Below, piece by piece: positions 2,831-25,540 of a stretch of 34,254 bases of DNA. This DNA is from Thermoflexales bacterium (GTDB lineage Bacteria; Chloroflexota; Anaerolineae; Fen-1058). The DNA lies in assembly GCA_041738395.1 (NCBI GenBank), contig JBGSPW010000064.1, positions 64,001 through 98,254 on the forward strand, given 5' to 3'. The position numbers were made by a program, and so were the translations under genes. Positions within the stretch are counted from its first letter, which is position 1. Every line of letters begins with the position of its first letter. The notes below the pieces were generated by a model. The model was not told where the DNA came from. It saw only the letters and a program-made list of their open reading frames with translations, and searched no databases.

Positions 2831-4240
<1,410 letters not shown>

Positions 4241-5619: not shown

Positions 5620-5837
5620 CTGAATTTGATCGGGCCGTGGGAGTGTTTGATCTCACAGGTGGTGCGATCGCACTGGCCCACGCAGTCCAGCGGCAACGCG
5701 TGTTGAAACACCTGTCCGCAGGCATGACAACGCGCCGAAGTATCGTAACACCATACTTCGACTTCCGGCTCACCGCACTGGGGGCACGTCACGTAATCTG
5801 GAAAAGGATGCGGCGCATCATGACCTAACACAGGCAC
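5616..5837 (-). CDS. Small Cys-rich zinc-ribbon protein (73 aa)
   Basis: CPQCG...CHACG plus a second CVGQCDRTTC cluster. Its TGA stop overlaps the TTG start of the downstream YwiC-like gene (TTGA overlap), arguing for a real, co-translated gene. Confidence 0.5.
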   Translation of the reverse strand: MPVLGHDAPHPFPDYVTCPQCGEPEVEVWCYDTSARCHACGQVFQHALPLDCVGQCDRTTCEIKHSHGPIKFS

Positions 5838-5881
5838 GCTCCCGACATTAACCCAAGTTTAATCGATCTGCTATCGTTCAC

Positions 5882-5971: not shown

Positions 5972-6277
5972 CTATTCGGTGCGCTCAATCACGATGGTCA
6001 TCTTAGCCACCAGGGCCGCGGCAGCGCCGATGGCCGCCCACACCGGCAGCAGAACCACACCGACCACGCCAATGGTGATCGGTATTTCCAGTAACGTCTT
6101 ACCAGATTCATCTTTCAACACAATGCGGCGGATGTTGCCTTCATGCAGCAATTTCTTGACGACATCCAACACTTGCCCGCCCGTGACACTGAACTCTTCA
6201 GTGTGCGGCTTGTGATCTTGCGGCGGAGTGTCGGTCTGCGGTGCTTCGCTTTGAGGTGGGGTTTGTTCGTCGGTCAT
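5972..6277 (-). CDS. Small protein resembling the DUF4342 family
   Basis: 101 aa. The Pro/Thr/Gln-rich N-terminus is followed by VLDVVKKLLHEGNIRRIVLKDESGKTLLEIPITIGVVGVVLLPVWAAIGAAAALVAKMTIVIER, which matches my recollection of the DUF4342 core. A hairpin at 5912-5937 follows it. Confidence 0.5.
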   Translation of the reverse strand: MTDEQTPPQSEAPQTDTPPQDHKPHTEEFSVTGGQVLDVVKKLLHEGNIRRIVLKDESGKTLLEIPITIGVVGVVLLPVWAAIGAAAALVAKMTIVIERTE

Positions 6278-6398
6278 GATCTGCTCCTTTCAGGTGGAAT
6301 GAATATAGTATAACGTGAAAGAAAGCGCAGGGCAACTGCCCCAACGTATGATAGAATGGGAATCACTTGAACGCGGCCAGCGTCCTAGCTTCAGCCAC

Positions 6399-6458
6399 AG
6401 AAACCGGGTTTCTGCGTGTAGTCTGGCATTACGCCAGAAATTGAGAAACCCGGTTTCT
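6399..6458. repeat. 60-nt twin-palindrome element, copy 1: AGAAACCGGGTTTCT - 30 nt - AGAAACCCGGTTTCT
   Basis: The two 15-mers are exact reverse complements of each other, and each is itself a near-palindrome (GAAAC-N3-GTTTC). The spacer contains an inner hairpin tctggc-attac-gccaga. Lies in the divergent intergenic region between the DUF4342 gene and the 801-aa gene. Confidence 0.6.
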
Positions 6459-6598
6459 ATGAGTTCAGCACCTTATCTTCAACGCAGCTCCCCAACTAGA
6501 GCCGCACTCAAGTGCTTGAACTGGCTGACCGGCACGCCGTATCATAGCATGACAGTTCGTGATCCTGGTGATTATTCACATCGTTTGTTTTGCTCTCA

Positions 6599-6638
6599 GT
6601 CCGCGTCCACGCGGACGCCCGCGAAGACGCGGGCTGGG
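6599..6638. repeat. GC-rich REP-like palindromic element family B, copy 1 (gtccgcgtccacgcggac + cccgcgaagacgcggg + ctggg)
   Basis: Two adjacent perfect hairpins, 48 nt upstream of the 801-aa gene start. Confidence 0.45.
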
Positions 6639-6685
6639 AACACTTGTAATTAAATCGCAGGCGATCCATTCGGGAGTGCGTCTGG

Positions 6686-9091
6686 ATGAAAATTCGACTC
6701 GGTGCGATTCTGCTTATGCTGGCCCTGCTGCTCACCTCCACGGTGGCCGCGGCGCAAACGCCCGTCACGTTAGTGGTCGAGGCCGGCCTGGACGGTCACT
6801 ATCAAGTCGGGCAGTGGCTGCCGGTGCGCGTCCTGATCGAAAACAACGGGCCTGGCCTCGACGGTCGGGTGGAGATCACTTTGCCCCGTGCCGATGAAGG
6901 GCAAGTCGTCAATGCTTATCCCGTCAGCCTACCCACCCAGTCGCGCAAAGAAATCACGCTCTATCTCTATCCCGAAACGTACATCGCCAGCCTCGACGTC
7001 ACCTTGCTCGATACCAGCGGGCAGCTGATCACGAAGCGCAGTGTGCCGCTCAAGTCGGTGAGTGATAACGATCGGCTGTTTGGCATCATCGCCGATCGGC
7101 CTTCGGCCTACAACGTCTTGAGCGAACTCGATCCGCCCAACGGCGTAGCGAACGTGGCGCAGCTCACGCTGCACGACCTGCCCGATCGATCCGTGGCCCT
7201 CGACAGCCTGGACACGCTCATCATCTCCAATGTGGACACCGGTGATCTGGCCGACGTGCAGCGCACGGCCCTATCGGCCTGGATCGCCAACGGCGGACGC
7301 TTGATCGTTACCGGCGGATCGGGCTGGCAGAAAACCAGCGCCGGACTGCGCGATCTACTGCCCCTGTCGCCTGCCAGCGCGATCCTGCTAGACGATCTAA
7401 GCGCGCTGAAAACTTACGCCGGCAGTACCGCCAGTCCGGGCAGTGCCATTATTGCCACTGGCGCCTCGACCCCGGACGCGCAAGTCATCCTCAAACAAGC
7501 CGAGACACCCTTGCTGATCCGGCGGCAACATGGTGTAGGTGAAGTCGTGTTTGTCAGCTTCGATCCGGTGGACTTGCAGCAAGTCGTCGTTGCCAGTTCT
7601 GCTCCGGGGGATTCACAGTCCTGGAATGGTTTCCTGGAAATCTATCGACAGCTCACGCAATCCCTACCCGATAAACCTAGCTGGGGCTATGGCGTGCAAG
7701 ATTGGTACACGGCCACGAGCGCCGCCTCAAATATTCCCAATTTGAACTTGCCGCCAGTCTCGTTGATTTGCGGTTTCCTGGGGTTGTACATGGTCGCCAT
7801 CGGGCCGGTCAACTACCTCATCGTGCGCAAACTGAAACGCCGTGAGCTGGCCTGGATCAGTGTGCCGCTGTTGACGATTGGTTTTACGGTGGCGGCTTTT
7901 CTGGCGGGCAATCTACTGCGCGGCAATCAACCGGTGCTCAATCGCTTGGCCCTGGTACAAGTCTGGCCTTCGGCCGATCAAGCTCGCTTGACGGGCATCG
8001 TCGGCTTGTATGCGCCGCAGCGCGCCATGTATGAGGTGAAAGCCGATCAGGGTTTACTCCTTCATCCAGCGTCTGATCCCAACCCCTACCGATCGACCGG
8101 TGACACTTCCGATTGGACCCTGAGCAGCGACGCCGCTACGTTGCGCGCCCGCGTCGAGATGGACGTCTCTGAAGTAAAAACGATGAGCGCCGAAGGCGAA
8201 GTGCCTGCACCGCAGTTTACACCTGCGCTACAGCTGGTGGTGGATAGTGCCGGAGCCAGAGTGAGCGGCTCGGTCACTAATCACAGCGACCTGGTTCTGC
8301 AAGATACCGTGCTGCTGGGGCCGGGCCTGGCCCACCAGGTGGGCACGGTCGAGCCAGGGGAAAGTGTGCCGGTTGATTTCAAACTGGAACGAGCCGCCCG
8401 CTCCAGCCAGACGACCGAGAACGTCCAGTATTACTACAATAGCGGTGATACGACCCTGGACGACATCGTCGGACCATACAACTTTAATAGCAGTGACACA
8501 GCCCGCAACCGCCGTTACGAAATGCTAAGCTCGTTGCTATCTGGCAACAACACGCCCATTCGCCGAGGTCGCGGCAGCGGCCTGTATTTAGCGGGCTGGA
8601 GCGATCGATCACCATTGAAAGTCGAAGTCGAAGGCACGCCGTTTGGTGCTTTTGATACCGCCCTGTACATCGTCGATTTGAATCCGACGCTCCAGATCAT
8701 GTCCGGCACACTGACGTTGCCACCGGGCGCCTTCACGTGGCAGGCCGACAATACCAACGGTCCCGGCATTGAACCGTATAACAGCGAGGTCTTTCCGGGC
8801 AGCTACAACCTTCAGTTCAACCTGGCGCGGCCGATTAGCTACACGACGATCAAGGACTTAACCTTGCACCTGGATACAGGCAACCGTCATTCCAGCGGCC
8901 TCACCTTCGCCGTGTGGAACTATCGGGCCAACAACTGGACGCCCTTGCCGAACGCCCAGGATGGAGATAATGCCATTCCGAATCCGCAAGAGCACGTCGG
9001 CCCCGGCGGTGAAATCCGCTTGAAGATCGATGTATCATCCGGCGGCCCGGTGCAACTCGATCGCGCCGACTTCACCCTGACGGTTCAATAA
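6686..9091 (+). CDS. Large secreted/membrane protein (801 aa); candidate accessory component of the downstream ABC transporter (GldG/DUF4350-like, tentative)
   Basis: Cleavable-type signal peptide MKIRLGAILLMLALLLTSTVAAAQTP. Two internal TM helices near aa 355-410. Large extracytoplasmic N- and C-terminal regions. The GGRLIVTGGSG segment is reminiscent of class-I glutamine-amidotransferase-like folds. Followed by the ABC ATPase after a 15-nt gap. Confidence 0.7.
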   Translation: MKIRLGAILLMLALLLTSTVAAAQTPVTLVVEAGLDGHYQVGQWLPVRVLIENNGPGLDGRVEITLPRADEGQVVNAYPVSLPTQSRKEITLYLYPETYIASLDVTLLDTSGQLITKRSVPLKSVSDNDRLFGIIADRPSAYNVLSELDPPNGVANVAQLTLHDLPDRSVALDSLDTLIISNVDTGDLADVQRTALSAWIANGGRLIVTGGSGWQKTSAGLRDLLPLSPASAILLDDLSALKTYAGSTASPGSAIIATGASTPDAQVILKQAETPLLIRRQHGVGEVVFVSFDPVDLQQVVVASSAPGDSQSWNGFLEIYRQLTQSLPDKPSWGYGVQDWYTATSAASNIPNLNLPPVSLICGFLGLYMVAIGPVNYLIVRKLKRRELAWISVPLLTIGFTVAAFLAGNLLRGNQPVLNRLALVQVWPSADQARLTGIVGLYAPQRAMYEVKADQGLLLHPASDPNPYRSTGDTSDWTLSSDAATLRARVEMDVSEVKTMSAEGEVPAPQFTPALQLVVDSAGARVSGSVTNHSDLVLQDTVLLGPGLAHQVGTVEPGESVPVDFKLERAARSSQTTENVQYYYNSGDTTLDDIVGPYNFNSSDTARNRRYEMLSSLLSGNNTPIRRGRGSGLYLAGWSDRSPLKVEVEGTPFGAFDTALYIVDLNPTLQIMSGTLTLPPGAFTWQADNTNGPGIEPYNSEVFPGSYNLQFNLARPISYTTIKDLTLHLDTGNRHSSGLTFAVWNYRANNWTPLPNAQDGDNAIPNPQEHVGPGGEIRLKIDVSSGGPVQLDRADFTLTVQ

Positions 9092-9106
9092 CCGCGAGGC
9101 GTTTTC

Positions 9107-10063
9107 ATGTCGACCATTATCGAGATCAAAGACCTGACCAAGAAATACGGCAAACGCACCGCCGTCAATCATCTCAACCTCAACGTCAACGCGGGCGAAA
9201 TCTTCGGCTTTGTGGGACCTAACGGCGCGGGCAAGACCACGACCATGCGCATCTTAGCCACCTTGCTGCGGGCGAACAGCGGCGAAGCCGTCATCGCCGG
9301 GCACTCGGTGAAGAAGTCGCCGCGCGGGGTGCGTGGGGCGATCGGGTACATGCCGGACACCTTCGGCATCTATCACGATATGCGCGTGTGGGAGTATCTG
9401 GATTTCTTCGGCGCGTGCTACCAGCTGCGCGAGACCGAACGCAAGCGCCTGGTGAACGATCTGTTGGAGTTGGTCGACATGACGCCGCGCCGCGATGACA
9501 TGGTCGATAAACTGTCGCGCGGCTTGCAGCAGCGGCTGGGCCTGGCCCGCACGTTGATTCACGATCCCCAGGTACTTATCCTCGACGAGCCTGCGTCGGG
9601 ACTCGATCCGCGCGCGCGTGTGGAGATTCGTGAACTGCTGGTCGAGCTGGCGCGCATGGGCAAGACGGTGTTCTTCTCCACGCACATTCTGGCGGACGTG
9701 GCCGAGATTTGCACGCGGGTCGGCATCATCGAAGGCGGACAGATCGTGGCGCTGGGCACGCTCGACGAATTGCAGCGCGGCCTGGCGGCGCAGCGTGCGG
9801 TGCACATCGTGGTGCTCGATCAAGCCGCCGCCGCCCAGGAATTTCTCAGCGCCCTGCCCGGGGTCAGCGGCGTGGAAACACCGGCCGAGCAGACGCCACA
9901 GCAGCGCACGCGCCTGGAAGTGAAATTCACGGGCGATGACACGGCGTTGAGCGCCATGCTCACGGGCCTGGCCGCGCGCCACGTGCCTGTGGTGCATTTC
10001 AGCGAAGACAGCCAGAATCTGGAAGACATCTTCATGCAGCTGACCAAGTCGTCGTTGGAGTAG
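9107..10063 (+). CDS. ABC transporter ATP-binding protein
   Basis: Walker A GPNGAGKTT, ABC signature LSRGLQQRLGLA, Walker B LILDEPASGLD, H-loop STH. C-terminal regulatory domain of about 90 aa. Confidence 0.9.
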   Translation: MSTIIEIKDLTKKYGKRTAVNHLNLNVNAGEIFGFVGPNGAGKTTTMRILATLLRANSGEAVIAGHSVKKSPRGVRGAIGYMPDTFGIYHDMRVWEYLDFFGACYQLRETERKRLVNDLLELVDMTPRRDDMVDKLSRGLQQRLGLARTLIHDPQVLILDEPASGLDPRARVEIRELLVELARMGKTVFFSTHILADVAEICTRVGIIEGGQIVALGTLDELQRGLAAQRAVHIVVLDQAAAAQEFLSALPGVSGVETPAEQTPQQRTRLEVKFTGDDTALSAMLTGLAARHVPVVHFSEDSQNLEDIFMQLTKSSLE

Positions 10064-10068
10064 ATCGG

Positions 10069-10128
10069 AGAAACCGGGTTTCTCCCCTTCAGACGTAATG
10101 CAAGATAACCCGTAGAAACCCGGTTTCT
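10069..10128. repeat. 60-nt twin-palindrome element, copy 2 (same 15-mers, 30-nt spacer)
   Basis: Identical terminal 15-mers to copy 1. The spacer is about 60% identical to the reverse complement of the copy-1 spacer and shares a gcattacg core. Lies between the ABC ATPase stop (10063) and the permease RBS (10142). Confidence 0.6.
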
Positions 10129-10152
10129 GTGACACTTGCTTGAGGAGCCAAC

Positions 10153-11103
10153 ATGTCAGTCGTTCCTGCTCAACCCACCACGCCTCGCCGTTCCTTCGGC
10201 GAGTGGCTGCGCCGCAATCCCATTACGCTGAAAGAAATGCGCGGGCGCATGCGTGGCCGGCGCGCGTTCGTCGTCTTGACCTTGAACACGCTGCTGCTGG
10301 GCGGCTTTGTGGCGCTGCTTTATCTTTCATATGCCACCAGTTCCAGTGTGTCCAGTTCGCCGCGCAATTTACAAAGTTTGGGCAAAGCCATCTTCGCCGT
10401 CACGGTGGGCCTGCAACTATTGATCACGTGCTTCACCTCATCGTCGGCAGCCGTGGGGGCCATCTCTTCCGAGCGAGAACGCCAGACCTTCGAACTACTG
10501 CGCACCACACTGCTGCCCGCCCGATCGCTGGTGCTGGGCAAGTTATGGGCGGCGCTGTTATTCAACTTGCTGTTGATCATGTCGGCGATTCCCGTCGCCA
10601 GTCTCAGTTTCCTGTTCGGCGGTGTGACGTTCGAAGAAATCTTCATCGCCGGCGTCGTGCTGATCGTCACCGCGATCGCCTTCAGTTCGATCGGCCTGTT
10701 CTTCTCCAGTCTCATGCGCCGCACTTCGCAGGCCACGGCGATATCCACCGTCGTCACGCTGGCTCTGGTGATCGGCGTGCCAATCTTAATGTTCATCGTG
10801 CAGGGCCTCCTCTCGACCATGATGTATATAAGCACACAAACCGGCAACCCAACGGTCGATGCCGAAATCACCCGCAACATTATTCTGTGGTTGATGATCT
10901 CGATCTCACCGTTATCGGCCGGAGTCGCCACGCTGACGACCTTGCTGGACAATCACTCTGTGCTTACGATGACATTCTCGTTAAACACCGGCGGGCCACT
11001 AATCCTGCCTTCACCCTGGATCAGTTACAGTATCTTTTATCTGCTGTTTAGCATCGTGCTGATCTTGCTCAGCATCCGCATCGTCAAACGGGTGGATAAG
11101 TGA
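10153..11103 (+). CDS. ABC-2 family transporter permease
   Basis: 316 aa with about 6 TM helices. GAGGAG RBS 5 nt upstream of the ATG. Topology and length are typical of an ABC-2 permease paired with the preceding ATPase. Confidence 0.8.
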   Translation: MSVVPAQPTTPRRSFGEWLRRNPITLKEMRGRMRGRRAFVVLTLNTLLLGGFVALLYLSYATSSSVSSSPRNLQSLGKAIFAVTVGLQLLITCFTSSSAAVGAISSERERQTFELLRTTLLPARSLVLGKLWAALLFNLLLIMSAIPVASLSFLFGGVTFEEIFIAGVVLIVTAIAFSSIGLFFSSLMRRTSQATAISTVVTLALVIGVPILMFIVQGLLSTMMYISTQTGNPTVDAEITRNIILWLMISISPLSAGVATLTTLLDNHSVLTMTFSLNTGGPLILPSPWISYSIFYLLFSIVLILLSIRIVKRVDK

Positions 11104-11120
11104 AATCGCATAAGCGTCCA

Positions 11121-11207
11121 GAGCGGAGCATAGCGGAGTCGAAGGACGCGGATGTCTTGTATGAGCCGCATTCTTCGACTTCACTTCGTTCCGCTCGGAA
11201 CGCTTCA
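11121..11207 (+). repeat. Structured intergenic repeat family A, copy 1 (hairpin-forming, about 90 nt)
   Basis: gagcggagcatagcggagtcgaaggacgcgg ... ccgcattcttcgacttc ... ttccgctcggaacgcttc. The inner arms agtcgaagga/attcttcgact and the outer arms gagcggag/ttccgctc are complementary. Ends 3 nt before the start codon of the 558-aa gene. Confidence 0.55.
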
Positions 11208-11209
11208 AC

Positions 11210-12886
11210 TTGAATACGATGCCTACTAACGCACTGACTGACCTTAATCACCAGCTCGATGGCTGGCTGCGGCGCTATCGCCTACAGCGTGCGGTGCGCT
11301 GGTCGCTGCGTGGCGCGGCACTTGCCTTAGGGGTGGCGCTGGTCATCACACTGATTGCCGTGCTGCGCGGCCTGTTGCTGCAAGGCGAGTTCATCACGCT
11401 GGCGATCGGCTTGATGGTGATCGGGACGATCAGCGCCGCAGCCGCCGGGTATCTCTGGCGGCCCGATCGGCTGGTGGCGGCCCGTTGGTTCGATCGACAC
11501 TTTGGGCTGCGTGAGCGGGTTAGCACTGCCCTAGAACTCGCTCACGCCCTGTCTGCGGAGCAGGGGCGCGCTGGGCGAGCCGATCGATCTTCCGGCGACC
11601 TCGCGCAACGCCAACTGCAAGACGCCGCCGCGATGGCGCAGCGCGTGAACGCGCGCCAACAACTGCCGTTGAAGATCAAGCGCATCGATGCCGTGTTGAC
11701 CGTCGGGTTGCTGGTGGCTGTCATGTTAGTGGCGTGGCGTGGTGAGTCGTTCTTTCAGCTGGCCGCGCAGACGCGCGCCGTGCAGCAGACCATCGCCGCC
11801 GAGGCCGCCAAGGTCGAGGCACTGCGTCAGCAGATCGCCACCGATCCCAACTTGACCGAAGCCCAACGGCAGGAAATGTTGCAGGCGCTGCAAGAAACAC
11901 AACAACAATTGAAAGACGCGCAGTCGCTGGAGCAGGCCACGGCGGTGTTGACGCGCGGCGAGAAAAAGTTCGAATCGTTGACGAATGCGCAGGCCGAAGC
12001 TCAAACCGAAGGGCTGCGCCAGGCCGGTCAGCGATTGGCGCAAGATGAAGGTAGCCCGCTGCAAGGCTTTGGGCAAAATCTGGCCGAAGGTGATTTTCTG
12101 GCCGCCGCCGAAAATCTGCGCAGCCTCGATCTGAGTCAGATGTCGGCTTCCGAAGCGGCGGCATTGGCCGATCAATTGGAACAGGCTGCGGAGGCCCTGC
12201 AATCTAGCAATCCCGCATTGGCCCAGCAGCTGCGTGCTGCCGCAGCTGCGGCGCGCAACGGTGATGCGCAAAAAGCGCAGCAGGCTTTGGATCAGGCCGC
12301 GCAAGCGATGACACAGGCCGCGCAACAAACCGCGCGATCGAACGTGGCGCGCCAGGCAGCGGCACAGTTGGGCCAAGGTCGTCAGCGCATGATCGCCGCC
12401 GGTCGCAGCGCTCAGAGTCAAGCAGCGCAAGGAGACCAAGCGGGACAGGGCGACCCAACGCAGCCGGGTTCAAATCAAAGTGGATCATCAACGCAAGGCA
12501 ATCCAAATGGCGGAGCGGGATCAGGATCGGGCAAAGGCACGGGCAACAGCGGCGACGCGCAAGGCCCCGAGGCCGGTGGCAAACCGATCGATCAAAACAA
12601 CGGCCCCGGCGATGGCGGCGAAACGCCCTACGAACCGATCTATGCACCGCAGCTTTTGGGCGGTGGCGAAGGTGATACGGTGACACTGCCCGGCAGCGGC
12701 GATAATGGCGGAGATGTAACCGGACAGAGTGGCGTCAATCCCGGCAGCGACACGCCGAGTCAAGTGCCGTACTCGCAAGTGTTTGCTCAATATGCCAACG
12801 CGTATCGACAAGCGATCGACAACGGGCAAGTGCCGCCGCAGCTGAAAGATTTGATCCGGCAGTATTTCAGTTCGCTGGAACCGTGA
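11210..12886 (+). CDS. Membrane-anchored coiled-coil protein with Ala/Gln-rich and Gly/Ser/Asn-rich low-complexity regions
   Basis: 558 aa. Two N-terminal TM helices and a third near aa 160. Long AQ-rich predicted coiled coil. Gly-rich disordered tract. Conserved-looking C-terminal 40 aa ending QLKDLIRQYFSSLEP. No family assigned. Confidence 0.7.
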   Translation: MNTMPTNALTDLNHQLDGWLRRYRLQRAVRWSLRGAALALGVALVITLIAVLRGLLLQGEFITLAIGLMVIGTISAAAAGYLWRPDRLVAARWFDRHFGLRERVSTALELAHALSAEQGRAGRADRSSGDLAQRQLQDAAAMAQRVNARQQLPLKIKRIDAVLTVGLLVAVMLVAWRGESFFQLAAQTRAVQQTIAAEAAKVEALRQQIATDPNLTEAQRQEMLQALQETQQQLKDAQSLEQATAVLTRGEKKFESLTNAQAEAQTEGLRQAGQRLAQDEGSPLQGFGQNLAEGDFLAAAENLRSLDLSQMSASEAAALADQLEQAAEALQSSNPALAQQLRAAAAAARNGDAQKAQQALDQAAQAMTQAAQQTARSNVARQAAAQLGQGRQRMIAAGRSAQSQAAQGDQAGQGDPTQPGSNQSGSSTQGNPNGGAGSGSGKGTGNSGDAQGPEAGGKPIDQNNGPGDGGETPYEPIYAPQLLGGGEGDTVTLPGSGDNGGDVTGQSGVNPGSDTPSQVPYSQVFAQYANAYRQAIDNGQVPPQLKDLIRQYFSSLEP

Positions 12887-12909
12887 TGGATCATCATTGC
12901 AAGAAGCAT

Positions 12910-13067
12910 CCCGCCCAGCGCGCCGCCCAGCCTGCGGCTGGGGCACGGCGTGAGCGGAGCGCAGCGTAGTCGAAGGATGCGGCTTGCGCTAACAAGCGTT
13001 GTTCGTGTAACACGCATTCTTCGACTACAGCCCGAAAAAGCACGGACTTCCGCTCAGAATGCTTCGT
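12910..13067 (+). repeat. Structured intergenic repeat family A, copy 2 (full length, with a 5' cccagcc-N3-ggctggg hairpin)
   Basis: gtgagcggagcgcagcgtagtcgaaggatgcgg ... cgcattcttcgactac ... cttccgctcagaatgcttcg. A 16-bp inner stem with 1 mismatch. Ends about 38 nt before the moxR ATG. Confidence 0.55.
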
Positions 13068-13104
13068 CTATTTTTTACGCAATACGCATTACGAAAGGCC
13101 AGTC

Positions 13105-14082
13105 ATGACCCAACCTCTTACCGTCGATCAATTCCGCGAACTTGCCACGAACATGGAAACCGAGATTGGCCGCGTCATCGTGGGACAAAACGAGGTAGTG
13201 CGCGGCGTGTTGATCGGTATTCTGGCGGGTGGACACGTGCTGCTGGAAGGCGTGCCCGGTCTGGGCAAGACGATGTTGATCCGTACGCTGGCGCAAGTGT
13301 TGGATTTGAAATTCTCGCGCATTCAGTTCACGCCCGATCTGATGCCCGCCGACATTGTAGGCACCGAGATTTTGATCGATCAAGACGGGCAGCGCGCCTT
13401 TCGTTTTCAAGCCGGGCCGGTGTTTGCCAATCTCGTGCTGGCCGATGAGATCAATCGCGCCACGCCCAAGACGCAATCGGCATTGCTGGAAGCGATGCAG
13501 GAACATTCCGTGACGGTGGCGCAGCAGACGTATCAACTGGAAGAACCGTTCTTTGTCATGGCGACGCAGAATCCCTTGGAGATGGAAGGCACGTATCCCC
13601 TGCCCGAAGCGCAGCTCGATCGGTTCTTGTTCAAGATCAATGTCCCCTTCCCTTCGGCGACTGAACTGGTGGAGATTCTGGCGCGCACGACGGGCAAAGA
13701 TACACCTGCCGCGCAGACTGCCGTCAGTGGCGCCGACATCGTGCGGATGCGCGATCTGGCGCGGCAGACACCCATCGCTTCACATGTTAGCGAATACGTT
13801 GCACGCCTGATCGTCGCTACGCATCCCGATAACCCCGAGGCGACACCGCTGGTGAAGCAATACGTCCACTATGGATCATCGCCGCGTGGTGGGCAGGCCA
13901 TCATCCTCGGCGCGAAGATCGTCGCACTGCTGGCCGAGCGTTACAACGTCGCGTTTGAAGACATCGCCGTCGTCGCGCCGTCGGCCTTGCGTCATCGCTT
14001 GATCTTGAACTTCGAAGGCTTGGCGGAAGGCGCGAGCGCGGATCGGATTGTGGCGGAGTTATTGGAAAAGGTAGCAAAGTAG
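13105..14082 (+). CDS. MoxR-family AAA+ ATPase
   Basis: 325 aa. Walker A GVPGLGKT, Walker B LADEINRA, sensor motifs. Length and motifs are typical of MoxR/RavA-like ATPases. RBS AAAGG 6 nt upstream. Confidence 0.9.
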   Translation: MTQPLTVDQFRELATNMETEIGRVIVGQNEVVRGVLIGILAGGHVLLEGVPGLGKTMLIRTLAQVLDLKFSRIQFTPDLMPADIVGTEILIDQDGQRAFRFQAGPVFANLVLADEINRATPKTQSALLEAMQEHSVTVAQQTYQLEEPFFVMATQNPLEMEGTYPLPEAQLDRFLFKINVPFPSATELVEILARTTGKDTPAAQTAVSGADIVRMRDLARQTPIASHVSEYVARLIVATHPDNPEATPLVKQYVHYGSSPRGGQAIILGAKIVALLAERYNVAFEDIAVVAPSALRHRLILNFEGLAEGASADRIVAELLEKVAK

Positions 14083-14115
14083 AAGCGGCAGTGCGTCTAG
14101 CCACCAGAAGCTGAT

Positions 14116-15039
14116 ATGACCCATCACGGCGTCCAGCGAATTGCTGGTTCGTTATTGATAGCAACGGTTCTTGCAGGGTGCATTTCGCCTGTGATACCGA
14201 CCTCGACCTCTGTCCCTGTCACTGTTGAGCCAACATGGCAACCAACACCAGCGATGCTTCCCACCGAGGCCATTCCTATTAAGATTGTAGATGGTTCTCA
14301 AGGTTCAGTAATGTCACCCGTTCATGGACAGCTGCTTGTGCGGGCTTGCGAGAAAGAAGCATATGACAAATGTCCCAGCGCCTACGAATGCGATCTCGGA
14401 TATGTCGATCTAGCCAACGCACATTTTGTCCGCGTGCAACATATCAGTGAAGAAGACCCATTTTGCGAGAGCCGGAAGACAGATTTAATCTGGGCACCAG
14501 ATGGAACACAATTTGTTTATCGTAGAGGATGGATTGGCTCAATTGACTTTATCGTGTATGGCGCTGATGGTACTCAAAAACAACCTCTGGGGAGCTTTTA
14601 TCTAAGCGGTGCGTTCTGGACACCAGACGGGCGTTATCTCATTGTCAAAACGGGTGTAGGACCAAATTCACAACCCGCTGTTGAATACACCGTGTATGAT
14701 GCCCTTTCATGGAAGAAGGTTTGTGTAGTTGCCTCTGGTAATGGGATGATATTTGTTGTCGGAGGACAATGTATAGTGCCACTGAAAGACGGTCGAGCAG
14801 TGTTTCTTAGCGGAACCAAGGGTGTTGAGATGGCTATATGCAATGATCAGGCAAATTGTCCCGGCAGCAATAAGCTTCGACCGATTGGATCATTCTCTGA
14901 CCAAACCTTTGACTCGACCCGTTATCAAGCCCAAATCGAAAATTACTGGTTACGGGTATTTGACAGTGAAAGCGGTGTAGCACGAACATATGTAATACCT
15001 GGGTATCGCGTGACCAGCATCGCCTGGTCGCCAAAGTGA
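14116..15039 (+). CDS. Lipoprotein with PD40/TolB-like beta-propeller repeats; compositionally foreign (low GC)
   Basis: 307 aa. Lipobox LAGC. Repeated W.PDG motifs (WAPDGTQFVY, WTPDGRYLIV, IAWSPK). The nucleotide composition is visibly AT-richer (roughly 48% GC) than the flanking genes (about 62%). Confidence 0.7.
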   Translation: MTHHGVQRIAGSLLIATVLAGCISPVIPTSTSVPVTVEPTWQPTPAMLPTEAIPIKIVDGSQGSVMSPVHGQLLVRACEKEAYDKCPSAYECDLGYVDLANAHFVRVQHISEEDPFCESRKTDLIWAPDGTQFVYRRGWIGSIDFIVYGADGTQKQPLGSFYLSGAFWTPDGRYLIVKTGVGPNSQPAVEYTVYDALSWKKVCVVASGNGMIFVVGGQCIVPLKDGRAVFLSGTKGVEMAICNDQANCPGSNKLRPIGSFSDQTFDSTRYQAQIENYWLRVFDSESGVARTYVIPGYRVTSIAWSPK

Positions 15040-15090
15040 GCAAACTGAGCACGACAATACGCTTCACGTATCACGTTTTACGTACCAATC

Positions 15091-15984
15091 ATGCTCTTCG
15101 ACGAAACCTCCCTCCGCAAACTTCAGCAACTGACCCTCGTCACGTCGCGCGTGCGAGCGGGCGCGCTGCGCGGTGAGCGGCGTTCACTCAAACGCGGCGC
15201 GGGATTGGAGTTTGCCGACTTCCGCGATTACGTCCCCGGCGACGATCTGCGCCGTGTAGATTGGAACGTCTACGCGCGGCTCGATCGACCGTACATCAAA
15301 TTACGCGAAGAAGAAGAAGACCTGGCCGTTCACATTCTGATCGATGCGTCGCAATCGATGGATTGGGGTGAAGGCTCGCAGCACAAATTTGCATTCGCGT
15401 TGCACCTGGCGGCGGGAGTCGGCTCGATCGCGTTGGGCACGGGCGATCGCATTTCAGTTGTCATGCTGAGCAAGCTCAAGGTGGACGACAGTCCACCGAT
15501 CACGGAAGTCTCACTCCGTGGTCAACAGTACCTGCTGCACTTGCTCAAATTTCTTGAAGCGCAGCAAGCGGCAGGCGCCACTAATCTGGATGCCGCCATG
15601 CACCGTTACCTCATCAAGCCGCGCCGTCCCGGACTGGTAACTTTGATTTCGGATTTGCTCTCGCCCAACGGCTATCAATCGGCCCTGAAGATGTTGCAAC
15701 AACGCGGACACGAAGTGGCAATCGTGCACGTCCTGTCGCCGGACGAAGTCGATCCACCGTTGGCGGGCGATCTCAAACTGATCGATGTTGAAACGGGCCT
15801 TGCACAAGAAGTCAGTTTGGACAGCGGACTGCGCACTGCGTATCGCGAGCGGGTGGAGGCATGGCGCAACGAAGCACAGACGTTTTGCCGCGCGCGCGGT
15901 TTACGCTATCTCGCCGTCGAAACCGATCGGGCGTGGGATGAAGTGGTGTTGTACGACATGCGCAAAGCGGGCATGGTGAGATAA
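15091..15984 (+). CDS. DUF58 domain protein (partner of MoxR ATPases; BatII-like)
   Basis: 297 aa. LEFADFRDYVPGDDLRRVDWNVYAR is the hallmark DUF58 motif. Follows moxR as in Bat/MoxR operons. Confidence 0.85.
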   Translation: MLFDETSLRKLQQLTLVTSRVRAGALRGERRSLKRGAGLEFADFRDYVPGDDLRRVDWNVYARLDRPYIKLREEEEDLAVHILIDASQSMDWGEGSQHKFAFALHLAAGVGSIALGTGDRISVVMLSKLKVDDSPPITEVSLRGQQYLLHLLKFLEAQQAAGATNLDAAMHRYLIKPRRPGLVTLISDLLSPNGYQSALKMLQQRGHEVAIVHVLSPDEVDPPLAGDLKLIDVETGLAQEVSLDSGLRTAYRERVEAWRNEAQTFCRARGLRYLAVETDRAWDEVVLYDMRKAGMVR

Positions 15985-16012
15985 AGATCCGGCGAACGCA
16001 GATTAAAAGTTA

Positions 16013-16130
16013 CTGCTCAGCCGTCATGCCCGAGTGCTTCTGTCGGGCATCCAGATTCACTGCTGACATGCCCTCTGGATTCCCGCTAGAAGCATGCGGG
16101 AATGACAGCGCCGCGCGACGGCTGAGTAGA
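16013..16130. repeat. MITE-like element: 13-bp terminal inverted repeats (ctgctcagccgtc / gacggctgagtag) enclosing two internal hairpins
   Basis: The TIR match is 12/13. Internal hairpins atgcccga-N8-tcgggcat and attcccgc-N8-gcgggaat, whose loops are reverse complements of each other. Located between DUF58 and the BatA-like gene. Confidence 0.45.
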
Positions 16131-16232
16131 TACGATTGAAAGGATTAACGCTGATATTTTTGGTATCTGCTTTTATCCGCGTTATCTGCGCGCTTCGCGT
16201 CTGCGTCCAAAAACAAGTTCGACCACAATAAC

Positions 16233-18107
16233 ATGAACTTACTCGCACCTGCCGCGCTAGCCTTGAGTGCGCTGGCGATCCCCATCGTCATCTTCTACAT
16301 GTTGAAGCTGCGCCGCCGCGAAGTGACGGTCTCGTCCACGCTGCTGTGGCAGATGGTGCTGCGCGATCGACAGGCCAACGCGCCGTGGCAGCGCCTGCGC
16401 CGCAACCTCTTGCTGCTGCTGCAACTGTTGATCCTTGCCGCGTTGATCCTCGCCCTCGCCCGACCGGCGATCAGCGTCCCCACGCTCGCCGCGGGGTCAA
16501 GCGTGATTCTATTAGATGCGTCGGCGTCGATGAATGCCACCGATGTCGATCCCTCGCGCTTTGAAGCGGCCCGCCGCGCGGCTCAAGCATTGATCGATAC
16601 GCTGCCTTCTGCCGCACCCGTGACCATCATCGTGGCGGGTCAACAGCCGCAAGTGATCGCTTCGGCGGAGACCGATCGATCGACGTTGAAGCGCGCGCTC
16701 GACGAAGCGCGGCCCACCAACGGCGCGACCGACTGGTCAGCCGCATTTGCGTTAGCCGCCGGCGCGCTCGGTCGCCAGATCGATCAACCGACGACGGTGA
16801 TCATCTCCGATGGCGGCCTGCCGTCGAATCTGCCACCTTTGCCCGGCGAAGTACGCTACGTCCCGATCGGCCAATCAAGCGACAACGTGAGTGTCTCGGC
16901 CCTGTCATTGCGACCCACCAAGAACGGCGCAGAGTTATTCGCCGGCGTCGCCAATCACAGCGACACGGATCGATCGGTCATCCTCTCGCTCTACTCCGAC
17001 GGCGCGCTGCTGCAAGCACAGCCGATCGATCTGACAGCAGGCGAGACGCACAATGTGGTGCTGCCCGATCTACCGCGTGACGCGGCCGTCTATCAGGCGG
17101 CCCTCTCGCGGCCCGATCAATCCACGCAGCCCCTTGATGCACTCTCACTGGATGATGCTGCTTTCGCCGTCAATAATCCGGCGGGGGCGCGGCGTGTCTT
17201 GGTGATCTCACCGGGCAACGTCTTTCTGGAACAATTGCTGGCCGCCATGCCCGACCTGCAAGCATTTCGCGCCCTGCCCCAAAAAGACGGAACGGTGCAA
17301 ATGCCCACGGACGAATTCGATCTGTACATCTTCGATGGATTGGTGCCCGACGAACTGCCGTTCAAGCCGACGTTGTTCATCAATCCGCCGCAGAATTCGG
17401 TACTGCGCATCGATGGCGTCTTCAGCAACACGACCAACGCCCGCGTGATCGATTCGCCCGTGACGCGCGATGTGAATTGGAGCAACGTGCACGTGCGCAA
17501 GGCCAAACACATTACTCCACCGCAGTGGGCCAAGACGTTGATCGATTCAGAGGGCGGACCGTTGGTCGTCGCGGGCGACACCGGTGTGCGGCGCGTGGGC
17601 GCGATCACGTTCGATCTGCACGATTCTGATCTGCCGCTGCAAGTGACCTTTCCGATCTTGCTGGTCAACCTGATCAACTATCTCGCTCCGGGCCGATCGT
17701 TCAACGCACCTGATGGCGTGCGTCCCGGCGAGAGTTTGATCATCCGACCGGACGCAGCCGTGAGCACAGTCGCCATCGCGTCGCCGTCCAATCAGGTATA
17801 CACGGTGCGGCCCGCCGAAGGCACGGTCATCTTCAAAGACACCGGCGAGTTAGGCGCGTATGCCATCACGTCGATCAGCGGCGATCAGCAAACGGTCGAT
17901 TACTTCGCCGTGAACCTGTTCGAGCCGGCCGAGTCCAACCTCCGCCCGGTGGAAGCGATTCGGATCGGGCAAAGCCAGATTTCAGCGACACCGGCCACTG
18001 AGCAAGGCTGGCAGGAATGGTGGCCGTGGCTGGCGGCGCTGGCGCTGTTGATCTTGTTGATCGAGTGGTGGGTGTATCACGGGCGGCAGCGGGTAAAGAG
18101 GAATTGA
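16233..18107 (+). CDS. BatA-like protein: N-terminal double-TM anchor plus von Willebrand factor A domain, C-terminal TM
   Basis: 624 aa. The N-terminus LAPAALALSALAIPIVIFYMLKLRRREVTVSSTLLWQ matches the BatA/aerotolerance N-terminal double-TM domain. VWA MIDAS motif DASASM. C-terminal hydrophobic helix WWPWLAALALLILLIEWW. Confidence 0.85.
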   Translation: MNLLAPAALALSALAIPIVIFYMLKLRRREVTVSSTLLWQMVLRDRQANAPWQRLRRNLLLLLQLLILAALILALARPAISVPTLAAGSSVILLDASASMNATDVDPSRFEAARRAAQALIDTLPSAAPVTIIVAGQQPQVIASAETDRSTLKRALDEARPTNGATDWSAAFALAAGALGRQIDQPTTVIISDGGLPSNLPPLPGEVRYVPIGQSSDNVSVSALSLRPTKNGAELFAGVANHSDTDRSVILSLYSDGALLQAQPIDLTAGETHNVVLPDLPRDAAVYQAALSRPDQSTQPLDALSLDDAAFAVNNPAGARRVLVISPGNVFLEQLLAAMPDLQAFRALPQKDGTVQMPTDEFDLYIFDGLVPDELPFKPTLFINPPQNSVLRIDGVFSNTTNARVIDSPVTRDVNWSNVHVRKAKHITPPQWAKTLIDSEGGPLVVAGDTGVRRVGAITFDLHDSDLPLQVTFPILLVNLINYLAPGRSFNAPDGVRPGESLIIRPDAAVSTVAIASPSNQVYTVRPAEGTVIFKDTGELGAYAITSISGDQQTVDYFAVNLFEPAESNLRPVEAIRIGQSQISATPATEQGWQEWWPWLAALALLILLIEWWVYHGRQRVKRN

Positions 18108-18174
18108 TAATTGCTGAATGCTGATTGTTGATCGACCAACCGTCACGTATCACGCATTACGTTTTACGTTCATT

Positions 18175-21042
18175 ATGCATTTCACGACACCGCTTCTTCT
18201 ACTCTTACTCATCCTCCTGCCGATCATCATCCTGATCGGCAAGCCGGTGCGCGGATCGGCGCGGCGGCGCGAAATCCTCGCGTTGGGGCTGCGGATGATC
18301 ATCGTGGGGTGTGTGATCCTCGCGCTGGCTGGATTAGAGATCGCGCGCCCTTCCGATCAACTGGCGGTCGTGTTTCTGATCGACGCCTCCGATTCGATGT
18401 CGGATGAAGCGAAAGGGCTGGCGACGGATTACGTGCGGCAGGCTCTGCGCCACATGGGGCCGGACGATCAAGCGGCCATTGTCGTGTTCGGCGGTGAGGC
18501 GCTGGTGGAACGCGCCATGTCGTCTTCACGCGAACTCACTTCGCTCACCTCGGCGCCCAACACGGGACAGACCAATCTGGCCGATGCGATTCGCCTGGGA
18601 TTGGCGCTGTATCCGGCGGGCGCGGCGCGGCGCATGATCATCCTATCGGACGGCGCACAAACGATCGGGGATGCCGAGGAAGCCGCACGCTTTGCGGCCG
18701 ACAGCGGCGTGGAGATCAGCACGCTGCCCTTCGTGATGCAGCTCGGCTCGGAAGCCCTCATCACTTCCGTAGAAACGCCGGCGCGTTTGCGGCAAGGCGA
18801 ACGCTTCGATCTGCGTGTCAGCATCGACTCAACGCAAGCGATGCCCGCTCAGCTGCGCGTGCTGGTCAATGGACAAGTGGTGCACGAAGCCAGCTATCGC
18901 CTCAACCAGGGTCATCAAACGATCAGCATTCCATTGACGGCCACTGAACCGGGCTTCACGCGCTACATCGTGCAGATCGATCCACCGCAGGATCACGCGT
19001 ATCAAAACAATGAGCTGGCCGCCATCGCGCAAGTGTTGGGCGAGCCGAAGGTCTTGGTGGTGTCGCTGCCCGAGGGCACGCCCCTGCCCAACGGCGAGGC
19101 GCGCCCCGCTGAAGCCGATGCCCTGCTGCGCGCGCTGCAAGCCGCCAACTTCAACGTGGAAACGGCGCGGCCGGCGCAGCTGCCTTCGGATGTGGCGACG
19201 CTGGCTGATTACGCCTCGGTGGTGCTGGTCGATGTGCCTGCGCGCGAATTGTCGACGCGCCAGATGGAAGCGCTGCGCAGCTACGTGCGTGATCTAGGCG
19301 GCGGCCTCGTCACGATCGGTGGACCCACCAGCTATGGCGTGGGCGGCTACTACAAAACCCCGCTCGAAGATGCGCTGCCCGTCGAGATGCAGATCAAAGA
19401 CGAACAGCGCCGCCCGTCATTGGGTCTGGTGTTCATCATCGATCATTCCGGCAGCATGGGCGAGTTGAGCGGCGGCGCGACGAAATTGGAGCTGGCCAAG
19501 GAAGCGGCGGCTCGATCGGTGCAACTGTTGATGCCCAACGATCGCGTCGGCGTGATCGCGTTCGACGACGTCGCCAACTGGGTCGTGCCCATGACCGAGT
19601 TGTCCGATCCGTCTGGCGTGATCAACCAGATCGGCACGATTCGCATCGGCGGCGGCACTGATATTTATGGCGGCGTGCTGGCGATGTCGAAAGTGCTGCC
19701 CGACGATCCGGCCAAAGTAAAGCACGTGATTCTGCTCACCGATGGCGGTGCTGATCCCCACGGCATTCCTGAACTGGTGCGAAAACTGCACGACGAAAAC
19801 AACATCACCCTGACGACCGTGGGTGTGGGCCGCGATGCCGCGCCGTTCTTGCCCAGTCTCGCGGAAATCGGTGGTGGGCGTTATCACTTCGCCAAGGATC
19901 CCGGATCGATTCCCAGCATCTTCACCGAAGAAACGACACTCGCGACGCGTTCATACATCGAAGAAGGCGAGTTCTTTCCTAAGCAGGCCGCGCCCTCGCC
20001 GCTGTTGAACGGCATCACACAAGCGCCGCCGTTGTATGGCTATGTCGCAACATCGGCCAAAGACGCCGCGCAGACCATCCTCGTGTCGGCTAAAGATGAT
20101 CCGGTGTTGGCGGCGTGGCAGTATGGCCTGGGCAAAGCGGTGGCCTTCACGTCGGATGCCACGGGCCGTTGGGCGCGCGACTGGGTCGATTGGGATCAGT
20201 TCCCGTTGTTCTGGGGACAAGTGGTGCGTTACACCATCGGCGATCCGAACGCGTCCGCGTTGAACGTGAGTGTGGATCAGCAGGGCGATTCAGCCAAGGT
20301 GATCGTCGATGCGCGCGGCGCGAACGGCGACTATCTCAATGGTTATACCCTTAACGGCAACATCGTCAATCCCGATGGATCAGCTCAACCGATCGAGTTA
20401 CAGCAGACCGCCCCGGGTCGTTACGAAGGATCGTTCCAGCCGCGCGATCAGGGTGCGTACGTCATCGGCGTGGCAGGACAATCGCCCGATGGTGAAGTGT
20501 TGAACGAGAAAGCGGGTTGGGTGTTGTCGTACTCGCCCGAATATCGCAACCTCGAATCGAATCCTGATGCACTGTATCGCTTGACGCTGGCGGCGAACGG
20601 GCAGGTTGCGGCCAGCGATCCCGCCGAGGCCTTCGCGCATACGCCCGCAGGGCGCGCCGCGCCGCTCGCCACACGGCCGGCGTGGCCGTGGTTACTACTG
20701 ATCGCGGCGCTGCTGCTCCCCTGCGATGTCGGCGTGCGGCGCTTGGCCTTCGAGTGGCGTGACGTGCAAAAAGCGTGGCGGGCGATCGGGACGAAGTGGC
20801 AAGTGAAGCGCGCGGCGCAAGCAGCCCTGCCCGCCCGATCGGAACGCATGGCGACATTGTTCGATGCCAAGCAGCGCACCCGCGTCGAACGCGTGGAGCG
20901 CGCGGAACCGATCGAGCCGCCGCCAGCCGATCGGGAAGAGACAAAGCCGCCTGCGCCTCAACTCGATCGATCCACCACAAGCAAAGACCCCACCACAACC
21001 ACCTCGAGCTTGCTAGAAAAAAAGCGCGCCCGGCGAAAGTAG
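18175..21042 (+). CDS. Double VWA-domain membrane protein (BatB-like), with a charged K/E/R-rich C-terminal tail
   Basis: About 955 aa from ATG 18175 (MHFTTPLLLLLLILL). The ORF-track start at 18118 is less likely. Two VWA domains with MIDAS motifs DASDSM and DHSGSM. N-terminal and C-terminal TM helices. Terminal tail EKKRARRK. Confidence 0.8.
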   Translation: MHFTTPLLLLLLILLPIIILIGKPVRGSARRREILALGLRMIIVGCVILALAGLEIARPSDQLAVVFLIDASDSMSDEAKGLATDYVRQALRHMGPDDQAAIVVFGGEALVERAMSSSRELTSLTSAPNTGQTNLADAIRLGLALYPAGAARRMIILSDGAQTIGDAEEAARFAADSGVEISTLPFVMQLGSEALITSVETPARLRQGERFDLRVSIDSTQAMPAQLRVLVNGQVVHEASYRLNQGHQTISIPLTATEPGFTRYIVQIDPPQDHAYQNNELAAIAQVLGEPKVLVVSLPEGTPLPNGEARPAEADALLRALQAANFNVETARPAQLPSDVATLADYASVVLVDVPARELSTRQMEALRSYVRDLGGGLVTIGGPTSYGVGGYYKTPLEDALPVEMQIKDEQRRPSLGLVFIIDHSGSMGELSGGATKLELAKEAAARSVQLLMPNDRVGVIAFDDVANWVVPMTELSDPSGVINQIGTIRIGGGTDIYGGVLAMSKVLPDDPAKVKHVILLTDGGADPHGIPELVRKLHDENNITLTTVGVGRDAAPFLPSLAEIGGGRYHFAKDPGSIPSIFTEETTLATRSYIEEGEFFPKQAAPSPLLNGITQAPPLYGYVATSAKDAAQTILVSAKDDPVLAAWQYGLGKAVAFTSDATGRWARDWVDWDQFPLFWGQVVRYTIGDPNASALNVSVDQQGDSAKVIVDARGANGDYLNGYTLNGNIVNPDGSAQPIELQQTAPGRYEGSFQPRDQGAYVIGVAGQSPDGEVLNEKAGWVLSYSPEYRNLESNPDALYRLTLAANGQVAASDPAEAFAHTPAGRAAPLATRPAWPWLLLIAALLLPCDVGVRRLAFEWRDVQKAWRAIGTKWQVKRAAQAALPARSERMATLFDAKQRTRVERVERAEPIEPPPADREETKPPAPQLDRSTTSKDPTTTTSSLLEKKRARRK

Positions 21043-25421: not shown

Positions 25422-25455
25422 GACACATCCTTCTCACGATCAAGCAGACTAAGCA

Positions 25456-25528
25456 CTCATCGCATCCTTCGACTCCCGCTTCGCCTGTGCTCACGCCGTG
25501 TCCCAGCCTTTGGCTGGGCGGCGCGCTA
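25456..25528 (-). repeat. Structured intergenic repeat family A, copy 3 (5' half only, inverted on the plus strand)
   Basis: The reverse complement reads agcgcgccgcccagccaaaggctgggacacggcgtgagcacaggcgaagcgggagtcgaaggatgcg. This is nearly colinear with 12917-12990 of copy 2. Lies between tetR and the ABC ATPase start (25421), in the sense orientation of that gene. Confidence 0.5.
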
Positions 25529-25540
25529 GGCGGCGTCCGC

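Follow-up and report, generated by a model that had tools for sequence, protein, structure and literature searches.

A 34,254-nt stretch of contig JBGSPW010000064.1 from a Thermoflexales bacterium (Chloroflexota), referred to here in its entirety as the window, carries two copies of a 60-nt element in which a 15-mer is followed, after 30 nt, by its own reverse complement; the copies bracket the first two genes of a cluster, one encoding an 801-aa protein and the other an ABC ATPase. The locus raises the question of whether these elements serve the cluster, as operators or as RNA hairpins, or whether they are mobile repeats which came to lie there. We consider it probable that the 60-nt units are doublets of a repetitive extragenic palindromic (REP) sequence, similar to the REP doublets forming hairpins (REPINs) of other bacteria, that are moved in trans by a REP-associated tyrosine transposase (RAYT), and that the cluster has no regulatory device of its own in them.

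Sequence and predicted folding of the two doublets

Both elements, copy 1 at 6399-6458 and copy 2 at 10069-10128, were found exactly as an earlier note on this DNA had described them: the copies share a left arm (AGAAACCGGGTTTCT; 6399-6413 and 10069-10083) and a right arm (AGAAACCCGGTTTCT; 6444-6458 and 10114-10128), and the arm spacing is exactly 30 nt in both. The note had termed the 15-mer a near-palindrome, GAAAC-N3-GTTTC; the palindromy stood but its degree had been understated, since the 7+1+7 symmetry of AGAAACC-S-GGTTTCT is perfect in every arm. The sole difference between left and right arms is the central base, G on the left and C on the right, and because the arms are perfect palindromes, the "exact reverse complement" relationship between them amounts to a flip of this one base. 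When the window was searched with AGAAACCSGGTTTCT, allowing up to 3 mismatches, there were 4 matches (at 6399, 6444, 10069 and 10114), against a chance expectation of 0.04 at ≤2 mismatches and 0.45 at ≤3; no shuffled sequence reached 4.

The two copies are mutually inverted, with 84% complementarity over 63 nt. When the interiors were compared in inverted orientation, 20/30 positions matched, a value equalled by 0/500 shuffles, so that the relatedness of the spacers claimed earlier was confirmed; the gcattacg core which they were said to share reflects common descent within the lineage and is no conserved functional motif. Strong folds were predicted for both copies, as RNA (copy 1, -37.8 kcal/mol, z -7.6; copy 2, -26.8 kcal/mol, z -3.6) and as single-stranded DNA (copy 1, -20.0 kcal/mol, z -9.3; copy 2, -15.2 kcal/mol, z -6.0), in line with the 15-bp stem that had been proposed, whereas the structured 30-nt loop proposed with it was predicted for copy 1 only. 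A tight 34-mer form of the repeat gave a predicted single-stranded DNA fold of -16.8 kcal/mol; that of a single arm alone was weak, at -2.6 kcal/mol. The parts of the two doublets are as follows, with L044, L116-L118, L120, L121 and L127 denoting loci in other genomes that are described below.

6399..6413: copy 1 left arm, G-centred AGAAACC-G-GGTTTCT (REP core); the same 15-mer flanks RAYT genes in L044, L120, L121 and L127
6414..6443: copy 1 interior, GCGTGTAGTCTGGCATTACGCCAGAAATTG, 30 nt; own 6-bp hairpin TCTGGC/GCCAGA; inverted homologue of the copy 2 interior
6444..6458: copy 1 right arm, C-centred AGAAACC-C-GGTTTCT; predicted 15-bp stem with the left arm
10069..10083: left arm of copy 2, G-centred; its orthologue in L116-L118 has one mutation, AGAACCCGGGTTTCT
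10084..10113: interior of copy 2, 30 nt, homologous to that of copy 1 in inverted orientation; no stable internal hairpin
10114..10128: copy 2 right arm, C-centred; followed by 24 nt with a GAGGAG ribosome-binding site before the permease ATG

The gene context reported previously was also confirmed, and both copies are intergenic. Copy 1 lies within the 408 nt that separate a minus-strand DUF4342 gene (5972-6277) from the 801-aa DUF4350/DUF7408 gene (6686-9091), where promoter-like sites at 6516-6545 (+) and 6335-6307 (-) fall within blocks conserved among relatives; it is placed between these divergent sites, outside both predicted transcripts, and is probably not transcribed. Copy 2 lies between the genes for the ABC ATPase and an ABC-2 permease, inside the operon and 3.4 kb from any promoter-like site; it begins 5 nt after the ATPase stop codon (10061-10063), and its end is separated from the permease ATG at 10153 by 24 nt, which include the GAGGAG site at 10142-10147. 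A search of the window against Rfam produced no match at the gathering score, and permissive E-values gave nothing relevant; at the element, the sole match was a chance-level one to mir-4005 (17.5 bits vs 80). No site resembling an intrinsic terminator (a GC-rich stem plus a T-run) coincides with either copy, the tails being ATGAGTTC and GTGACACT.

The element belongs to a dispersed repeat family

Public genomes were scanned, with one genome per species and in 8-kb blocks, for the exact pattern arm-N15-45-arm, a procedure that yields a lower bound; the arm pair was found in more than 114 blocks. Among the matches listed, to which the family figures given below apply, most are from filamentous Cyanobacteriota (Microcoleus, Oscillatoria, Lyngbya, Calothrix, Kamptonema, Tychonema), one is from an Obscuribacterales metagenome-assembled genome (MAG), and several are from Chloroflexota (Anaerolineae, Ardenticatenaceae, Thermoflexales) of 55-61% GC; the window has 59% GC. 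The Chloroflexota blocks contain one doublet per 8 kb, in contrast to the cyanobacteria, several genomes of which gave multiple blocks and arrays; tandem arrays, present in several blocks, have a period of ~83 nt and comprise up to 10 units. In total 146 doublets were counted, with spacers of 30-39 nt (mode 35, mostly 34-36), and of 154 neighbouring arm pairs in the G...C order 145 have a spacing of 45-54 nt, in a sample biased by the search pattern.

Conservation ends sharply at the 15-mer. The 13-mer core is preceded by A in 353/355 cases and followed by T in 355/355; beyond these bases the sequence is random on the outer side, and on the inner side has only a weak symmetric AAWTYT located 6-11 nt from each arm. 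Only 15/143 elements (10%) fall inside an open reading frame (ORF) of at least 150 aa, vs 71% of random segments drawn from the same loci, and in at least three phyla the 15-mers of the window are also found next to genes that are unrelated. Significant similarity between interiors is confined to a single genome or lineage: the two window copies, the window and L032 (a sister lineage; ≤0.008 of shuffles), and L022 and L060 (same MAG; 0/500 shuffles). Such a restriction is expected if doublets are copied whole and the arms alone are constrained. One of seven queries, the copy 1 interior against cyanobacterial interiors, was marginal (~1% of shuffles), and the other six gave no cross-phylum similarity; homology of interiors across phyla is not claimed.

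The exact doublet was not found in viral contigs, which gave no evidence for a phage vector. A full-text literature search with the 15-mer and 13-mer strings returned no paper, figures and many journals not being searchable, and the motif is absent from the supplements of Di Nocera 2013 (PMC3733652). As a separate observation, the linkers between doublets in the cyanobacterial arrays (L044 4950-5670, L052 6252-6698, L031, L035 and L072) are 17-21 nt long and typically G-rich on one strand (GGGTGGGGGG, GCGGGGCGG); those of Kamptonema often contain the highly iterated palindrome HIP1 (GCGATCGC).

The repeat flanks a clade of RAYT genes

The densest array was found in L044, from Oscillatoria sp. 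HE19RPO, where a 186-aa ORF lies between element arrays. Its product contains the HUH and Y motifs NHYH...YIHLNP; it matches Y1_Tnp of Pfam (E 9e-12) and, with 81.6 bits against a cutoff of 80, the NCBIfam equivalog NF047646 (REP-associated tyrosine transposase), and the sole PDB match is 4ER8, E. coli TnpA-REP. Y1_Tnp was the only domain that Pfam identified in the 186-aa protein, with no C-terminal helix-turn-helix (HTH) domain. Such a gene, of ~187 aa and of the HUH/Y1 type, is flanked on both sides by the element in 4/4 cyanobacterial genomes examined; in the three further homologues, which are 78% (Kamptonema), 64% (Nostoc PCC 7524) and 63% (Capilliphycus) identical, the same arms or 1-mismatch variants of them are present on both sides. 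When the window and every pattern-derived locus were searched by tblastn with the RAYT as query, L044 alone was returned.

Relatives of the RAYT outside the cyanobacteria were found by an exhaustive HMMER search together with cluster look-ups, and the RAYT-flanking loci comprise L044 and L120-L122 (Cyanobacteriota), L123-L126 (Chloroflexota) and L127 (Planctomycetota). The Chloroflexota RAYTs are flanked on either side by close variants of the arms (AGAAACCWGGTTTTT and the like), including the following.

L123, Anaerolineaceae RAYT flank: AGAAACCAGGTTTTT-cta-AAAAACCTGGTTTCT
L125, Caldilineaceae RAYT flank: AGAAACCGAGTTTTT-tca-AAAAACTCGGTTTCT
L126, Promineifilaceae RAYT flank: AGAAACCCGGTTTTT-tcaa-AAAAACCGGGTTTCT

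In the Planctomycetota MAG L127, the RAYT, which is 65% identical to that of Kamptonema, is flanked on either side by the exact 15-mers, in the form of a tight C-N4-G hairpin. The gene itself (3001-3663) contains in its 3' part an in-frame REP hairpin at 3581-3614 (AGAAACCCGGCTTTT-ccg-AAAAAGCCGGGTTTCT), which extends the protein to 220 aa.

At metagenomic RAYT loci the motif (≤2 mismatches) adjoins the gene in 24/80 cases, in 19 of them on both sides; the positive RAYTs form three clusters on a rough neighbour-joining tree, within which 7/7, 9/9 and 11/14 members are positive. Motif-negative relatives have other 15-bp twin palindromes of the same design (AGACTTCCGAAGTCT, AGACCTCGGAGGTTT, CAGCCCGGCTGCT). 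Sister RAYTs at the metagenomic loci L132, L136, L141, L143, L142 and L151, 56-68% identical to the Planctomycetota RAYT P0221, are flanked by different perfect hairpins with palindromic arms of 13-19 nt (CAGCCCGGCTGCT, AGACTTCCGAAGTCT, AGACCTCGGAGGTTT, AGACATCGGAAGTCT), and these loci also show an A/T-rich hairpin type, AAAACCCGTTTT. The twin-palindrome design is kept across sister RAYTs while its sequence switches, and motif switching among RAYT relatives is what co-evolution of RAYT and REP produces in published accounts of REPtrons and TIRtrons (PMC3733652, PMC6006769). Judged by these sequence comparisons, the repeat family is the putative cognate repeat of a RAYT clade (HUH/Y1, IS200-like).

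Presence and absence of the copies in close relatives

The locus was compared with that of related genomes. L119 has the same gene order, and an 801-aa protein 86% identical to that of the window, but has neither copy; the gap between the ATPase stop and the permease ATG is 8 nt in L119 and, from gene coordinates, also 8 nt in the P0005 contig. L116-L118 (84% identical; L116 and homologues are from 'Anaerolineae bacterium fen_1063') contain copy 2 at this junction, in a form that has a mutation in one arm and 3/30 interior changes; they lack copy 1, which is absent from all relatives examined. These presence/absence differences between close relatives indicate that both copies are insertions.

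The intergenic region of copy 1 is an indel hotspot among relatives. In this region L116 has another, 131-nt inverted-repeat insertion (5728-5858) that is absent from the window and from L119; its inverted termini are ~18 nt long (GAGTATAACGCAAAAGTG / CAGTTTTGCGTTATACCC), similar short sequences flank it (ATAACAAT on the left, ATGACAAT on the right), and it looks like a miniature inverted-repeat transposable element (MITE) of another family. Over positions 5972-12886, the relatedness of the window to L116 and L119 is mosaic, with, for example, 8236-8729 nearest to L119 and 9954-10203 nearest to L116, a pattern in the alignments that suggests recombination among these Anaerolineae populations.

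Proposed mechanism and alternative explanations

We propose that each doublet consists of two 15-bp palindromic REP cores, in hairpin orientation, around an interior which is free to evolve. By analogy with E. coli TnpA-REP and IS200/IS605, the RAYT would recognise the folded hairpin on single-stranded DNA, and would cut and rejoin beside it; its action would spread or excise the whole doublet in trans. A RAYT of matching specificity would be present, now or formerly, in this organism, and the two window copies would be sister insertions of one within-lineage population, which landed in permissive intergenic gaps. The bracketing of two genes by the copies is incidental; the significance that the earlier note attached to it did not survive the comparison with relatives, since L119 has neither copy and L116-L118 have copy 2 only. 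Copy 2 would be co-transcribed between the ATPase and permease cistrons, as a 15-bp stem near the stop codon, and may be an incidental mRNA hairpin within the operon, altering mRNA stability or translation; a secondary effect on operon mRNA is possible in that, as with E. coli REPs, the hairpin could stabilise the upstream mRNA or lower expression of a flanking cistron, upstream or downstream.

Several observations weigh against mobilization by a RAYT. No RAYT was detected in the 34-kb window by tblastn. The window contains 2 doublets in its 34 kb; REP systems have tens to hundreds per genome. The canonical 5' GT[AG]G (or CGTC) tag is absent outside the 15-mer among the matches listed. Reconstruction of a clean empty-site/filled-site junction, or of a target-site duplication, failed at the locus, because the intergenic regions are indel-rich and mosaic: the copy 1 site contains local duplications (TTCAGC), and the gap at copy 2, when compared with that of 8 nt in L119, has ~29 nt more than the 60-nt element accounts for. 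Finally, the copy 2 gap is 84/89 identical (94%) between the window and L116, against 0.79-0.83 at the 4-fold sites of the flanking genes; this extra conservation could be due to selection on the hairpin or on the ribosome-binding site, or to recombination or a more recent shared origin of the segment.

The same conservation, 94% against ~80%, would also be accommodated if the doublets were locus-specific RNA elements, i.e. intercistronic or 5'-UTR signals for stability, processing or attenuation, selected to set how much of the 801-aa protein, the ATPase and the permease is expressed relative to one another, and copy 2 is indeed in the operon transcript, with its 15-bp stem 5 nt past a stop codon and the downstream ribosome-binding site free. 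However, the junction exists without the element in L119 and the P0005 contig, with an 8-nt gap, and copy 1, missing from all examined relatives, is upstream of both conserved promoter-like sites; the same arms flank RAYT genes and, in three phyla, adjoin unrelated genes, Rfam has no match for them, and the interiors are unconserved across lineages. This explanation is quite improbable, and a locus-specific RNA role would be at most an exapted side-effect of REP insertion. We regard as extremely improbable an operator pair, a role that the earlier note had listed and that is taken here to mean that the 15-mers bind a dimeric transcription factor and that a DNA loop between 6.4 kb and 10.1 kb controls the cluster: perfect 15-bp palindromes are typical for dimeric regulators, and copy 1 is in a divergent intergenic region, but the repeat forms tandem arrays of up to 10 doublets and occurs in hundreds of copies in unrelated contexts, beside unrelated genes; copy 2 is inside the operon, 3.4 kb from any promoter-like site; and close relatives have the same operon and gene order without the element. 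In addition, the rule of G in the left centre and C in the right fits strand pairing and not recognition of a dyad by protein, and the arms consistently flank an HUH transposase gene.

Mobility of another kind is invoked if the doublets are classical MITEs, deletion derivatives of a DDE-type insertion sequence (IS) which have 15-bp terminal inverted repeats and move by cut-and-paste with target-site duplications. Inverted terminal repeats, small size, presence/absence polymorphism and the short direct repeat TTCAGC in the flanks of copy 1 would all agree with this; nevertheless, 133 unique copies showed no consistent target-site duplication, their outer flanks are unconserved, copy 2 has no flanking direct repeat, the arms are themselves palindromic, as in REP hairpins, and no DDE gene was seen bounded by the arms, HUH/Y1 RAYTs being the only genes repeatedly so bounded. 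A classical MITE is accordingly very improbable. It is unlikely that the doublets are orphan relics, the immobile remains of a RAYT lost from the lineage, now decaying neutrally: the window has no RAYT, the orthologous copy 2 of L116-L118 has a mutated arm, and Chloroflexota blocks listed have one doublet per 8 kb vs the cyanobacterial arrays, but all four window arms are perfect, Chloroflexota carry RAYTs of the same clade with near-identical REPs, and copy 1 is confined to the window lineage and is therefore a relatively recent gain.

Mobilization in trans by a RAYT thus remains the preferred explanation of the doublets. The suggestions of a "REP-like" hairpin and of a "small non-autonomous mobile element", made in the earlier note, were right in kind, as the family flanks RAYT genes and is polymorphic for insertion at this locus; a generic REP with no locus-specific role, which the note had set down as contrary to its proposal, is essentially what the evidence shows. 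Other identities were tried and rejected. Integron attC sites and CRISPR repeats, considered on account of the GAAAC/GTTTC ends, were dismissed since the stems are perfect and without extrahelical bases, no cas or intI gene is nearby, the interiors are hypervariable yet lie between fixed arms, and in the arrays the linker is duplicated in tandem together with the doublet. Operators of the LexA, HrcA or NtcA type do not match the 15-mer, and the distribution of the repeat counts against any operator.

A possible pan-phylum REP

Three features of the family stand out in the sequences compared: the 15-mer is near-invariant across at least three phyla, the design is doubly palindromic with one central base setting polarity, and "tight" (N3-4) and "wide" (N30-36) forms coexist. 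It is possible, though in our judgement rather doubtful, that AGAAACC-S-GGTTTCT is a "pan-phylum" REP kept by one RAYT clade across Cyanobacteriota, Chloroflexota and Planctomycetota. The RAYTs that share it across the three phyla are only 52-65% identical, and palindromes of sister RAYTs conform to an AGAnnnn-S-nnnnTCT design (AGACTTC-C-GAAGTCT, AGACCTC-G-GAGGTyT). If true, the pan-phylum REP would represent a distinct untagged "twin-palindrome" class, in which an arm folds on itself or with its partner and a single central base encodes polarity, and it would imply horizontal transfer of whole REPtrons, seeding REPIN populations in new phyla.

For the window, the consequence is that a tempting regulatory reading is removed; the hairpins would define neither a regulon nor a mobile gene pair, and would be insertions of a selfish repeat, one of them within an operon transcript. 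More widely, a common hairpin repeat of cyanobacteria and Chloroflexota is now tied to a specific RAYT clade, and an untagged, doubly palindromic repeat that is unusually well conserved between phyla may offer a convenient system for studying how RAYTs read hairpins and how REPtrons change phyla.

Neighbouring genes and other repeats in the window

Further downstream of the permease are a gene without Pfam hits and the MoxR, DUF58 and BatA/VWA genes, and the cluster at 6686-21042 resembles an operon of the Bat/aerotolerance type (MoxR-DUF58-BatA/VWA), the upstream part of which comprises the DUF4350/DUF7408 protein, the two ABC-2 transporter proteins and a 558-aa protein. Neither the 558-aa protein nor a 307-aa ORF at 14116-15039, where the local GC is 48.5%, has a Pfam hit.

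The window contains a second, unrelated family of intergenic hairpin repeats, GAGCGGAGCryAGCGkAGTCGAAGGAyGCGG ... CGCATTCTTCGACTwCA, at 11121-11200 and 12950-13030, with a partial inverted copy at ~25455-25490; its copies occupy the two intergenic gaps that come next in the operon, as well as a gap 12 kb away, and each copy folds on itself (30-nt arms, 80% complementary). Adjoining it is a 45-nt inverted repeat, CCGCCCAGCGCGCCGCCCAGCCTGCGGCTGGGGCACGGCGTGAGC (12911-12955 / 25489-25533, 89% complementary), which may be part of a larger composite element together with this second family. GATC-centred palindromes are ~8-fold over the expectation from base composition across the whole window (CGATCG, 89 vs 10.9; ATCGAT, 44 vs 5.3), and the cyanobacterial HIP1 occurs only 3 times; the excess is a HIP-like signature in a Chloroflexota genome.

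Comparison with known systems

Bacterial MITEs such as Nezha of cyanobacteria resemble the family described here in being small, non-coding, intergenic and mobile, with inverted termini. The unit of 60-69 nt is, however, shorter than a typical MITE, neither target-site duplications nor a DDE parent were seen, and the family is associated with a tyrosine transposase of the HUH type.

A closer likeness is to TIRtrons and their TIRYT genes (Di Nocera 2013, PMC3733652; RAYT subclasses 2.1 and 2.4 of Quentin 2018, PMC6006769), in which a RAYT-like gene is bounded by untagged inverted repeats that are self-complementary ("double palindromic") and that occur as dimers or clusters elsewhere in the genome. 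The GGGGWSAS consensus of the TIRtron terminal inverted repeats is absent here, as is, by Pfam, a C-terminal HTH domain. The RAYT motifs NHYH / YIHLNP fit the signature listed for subclass 2.1, a likeness at the level of motifs, and in that subclass Quentin found no REPs; the in-frame REP insertion in the RAYT gene of L127 is an oddity that Quentin described for subclass 2.4, the subclass with "double foot" REPs.

The family differs from the REP/REPIN-RAYT systems (E. coli REP and bacterial interspersed mosaic elements (BIMEs) with TnpA-REP; Pseudomonas REPINs; Bertels & Rainey 2011, PMC3116915; PMC5581495) in three respects. It has no GT[AG]G guide tetranucleotide, and therefore does not belong to the classical GTAG-REP superfamily; its arms are perfect 15-bp palindromes whose orientation is set by the central base alone; and one 15-mer core is found across Cyanobacteriota, Chloroflexota and a Planctomycetota MAG, whereas a classical REP is usually confined to one species or genus. 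In common with these systems, it consists of short palindromic extragenic repeats, arranged as inverted doublets that fold as one long hairpin and as BIME-like tandem arrays; it flanks a small RAYT gene of the HUH/Y1 type, doublets are copied whole, and close relatives differ in presence and absence. Most of the defining features being present, the family would appear to work like REP/REPIN elements, and its distribution agrees with that of Group 4 RAYTs, which Bertels 2017 (PMC5581495) reported to be common among Cyanobacteria and Caldilineae.

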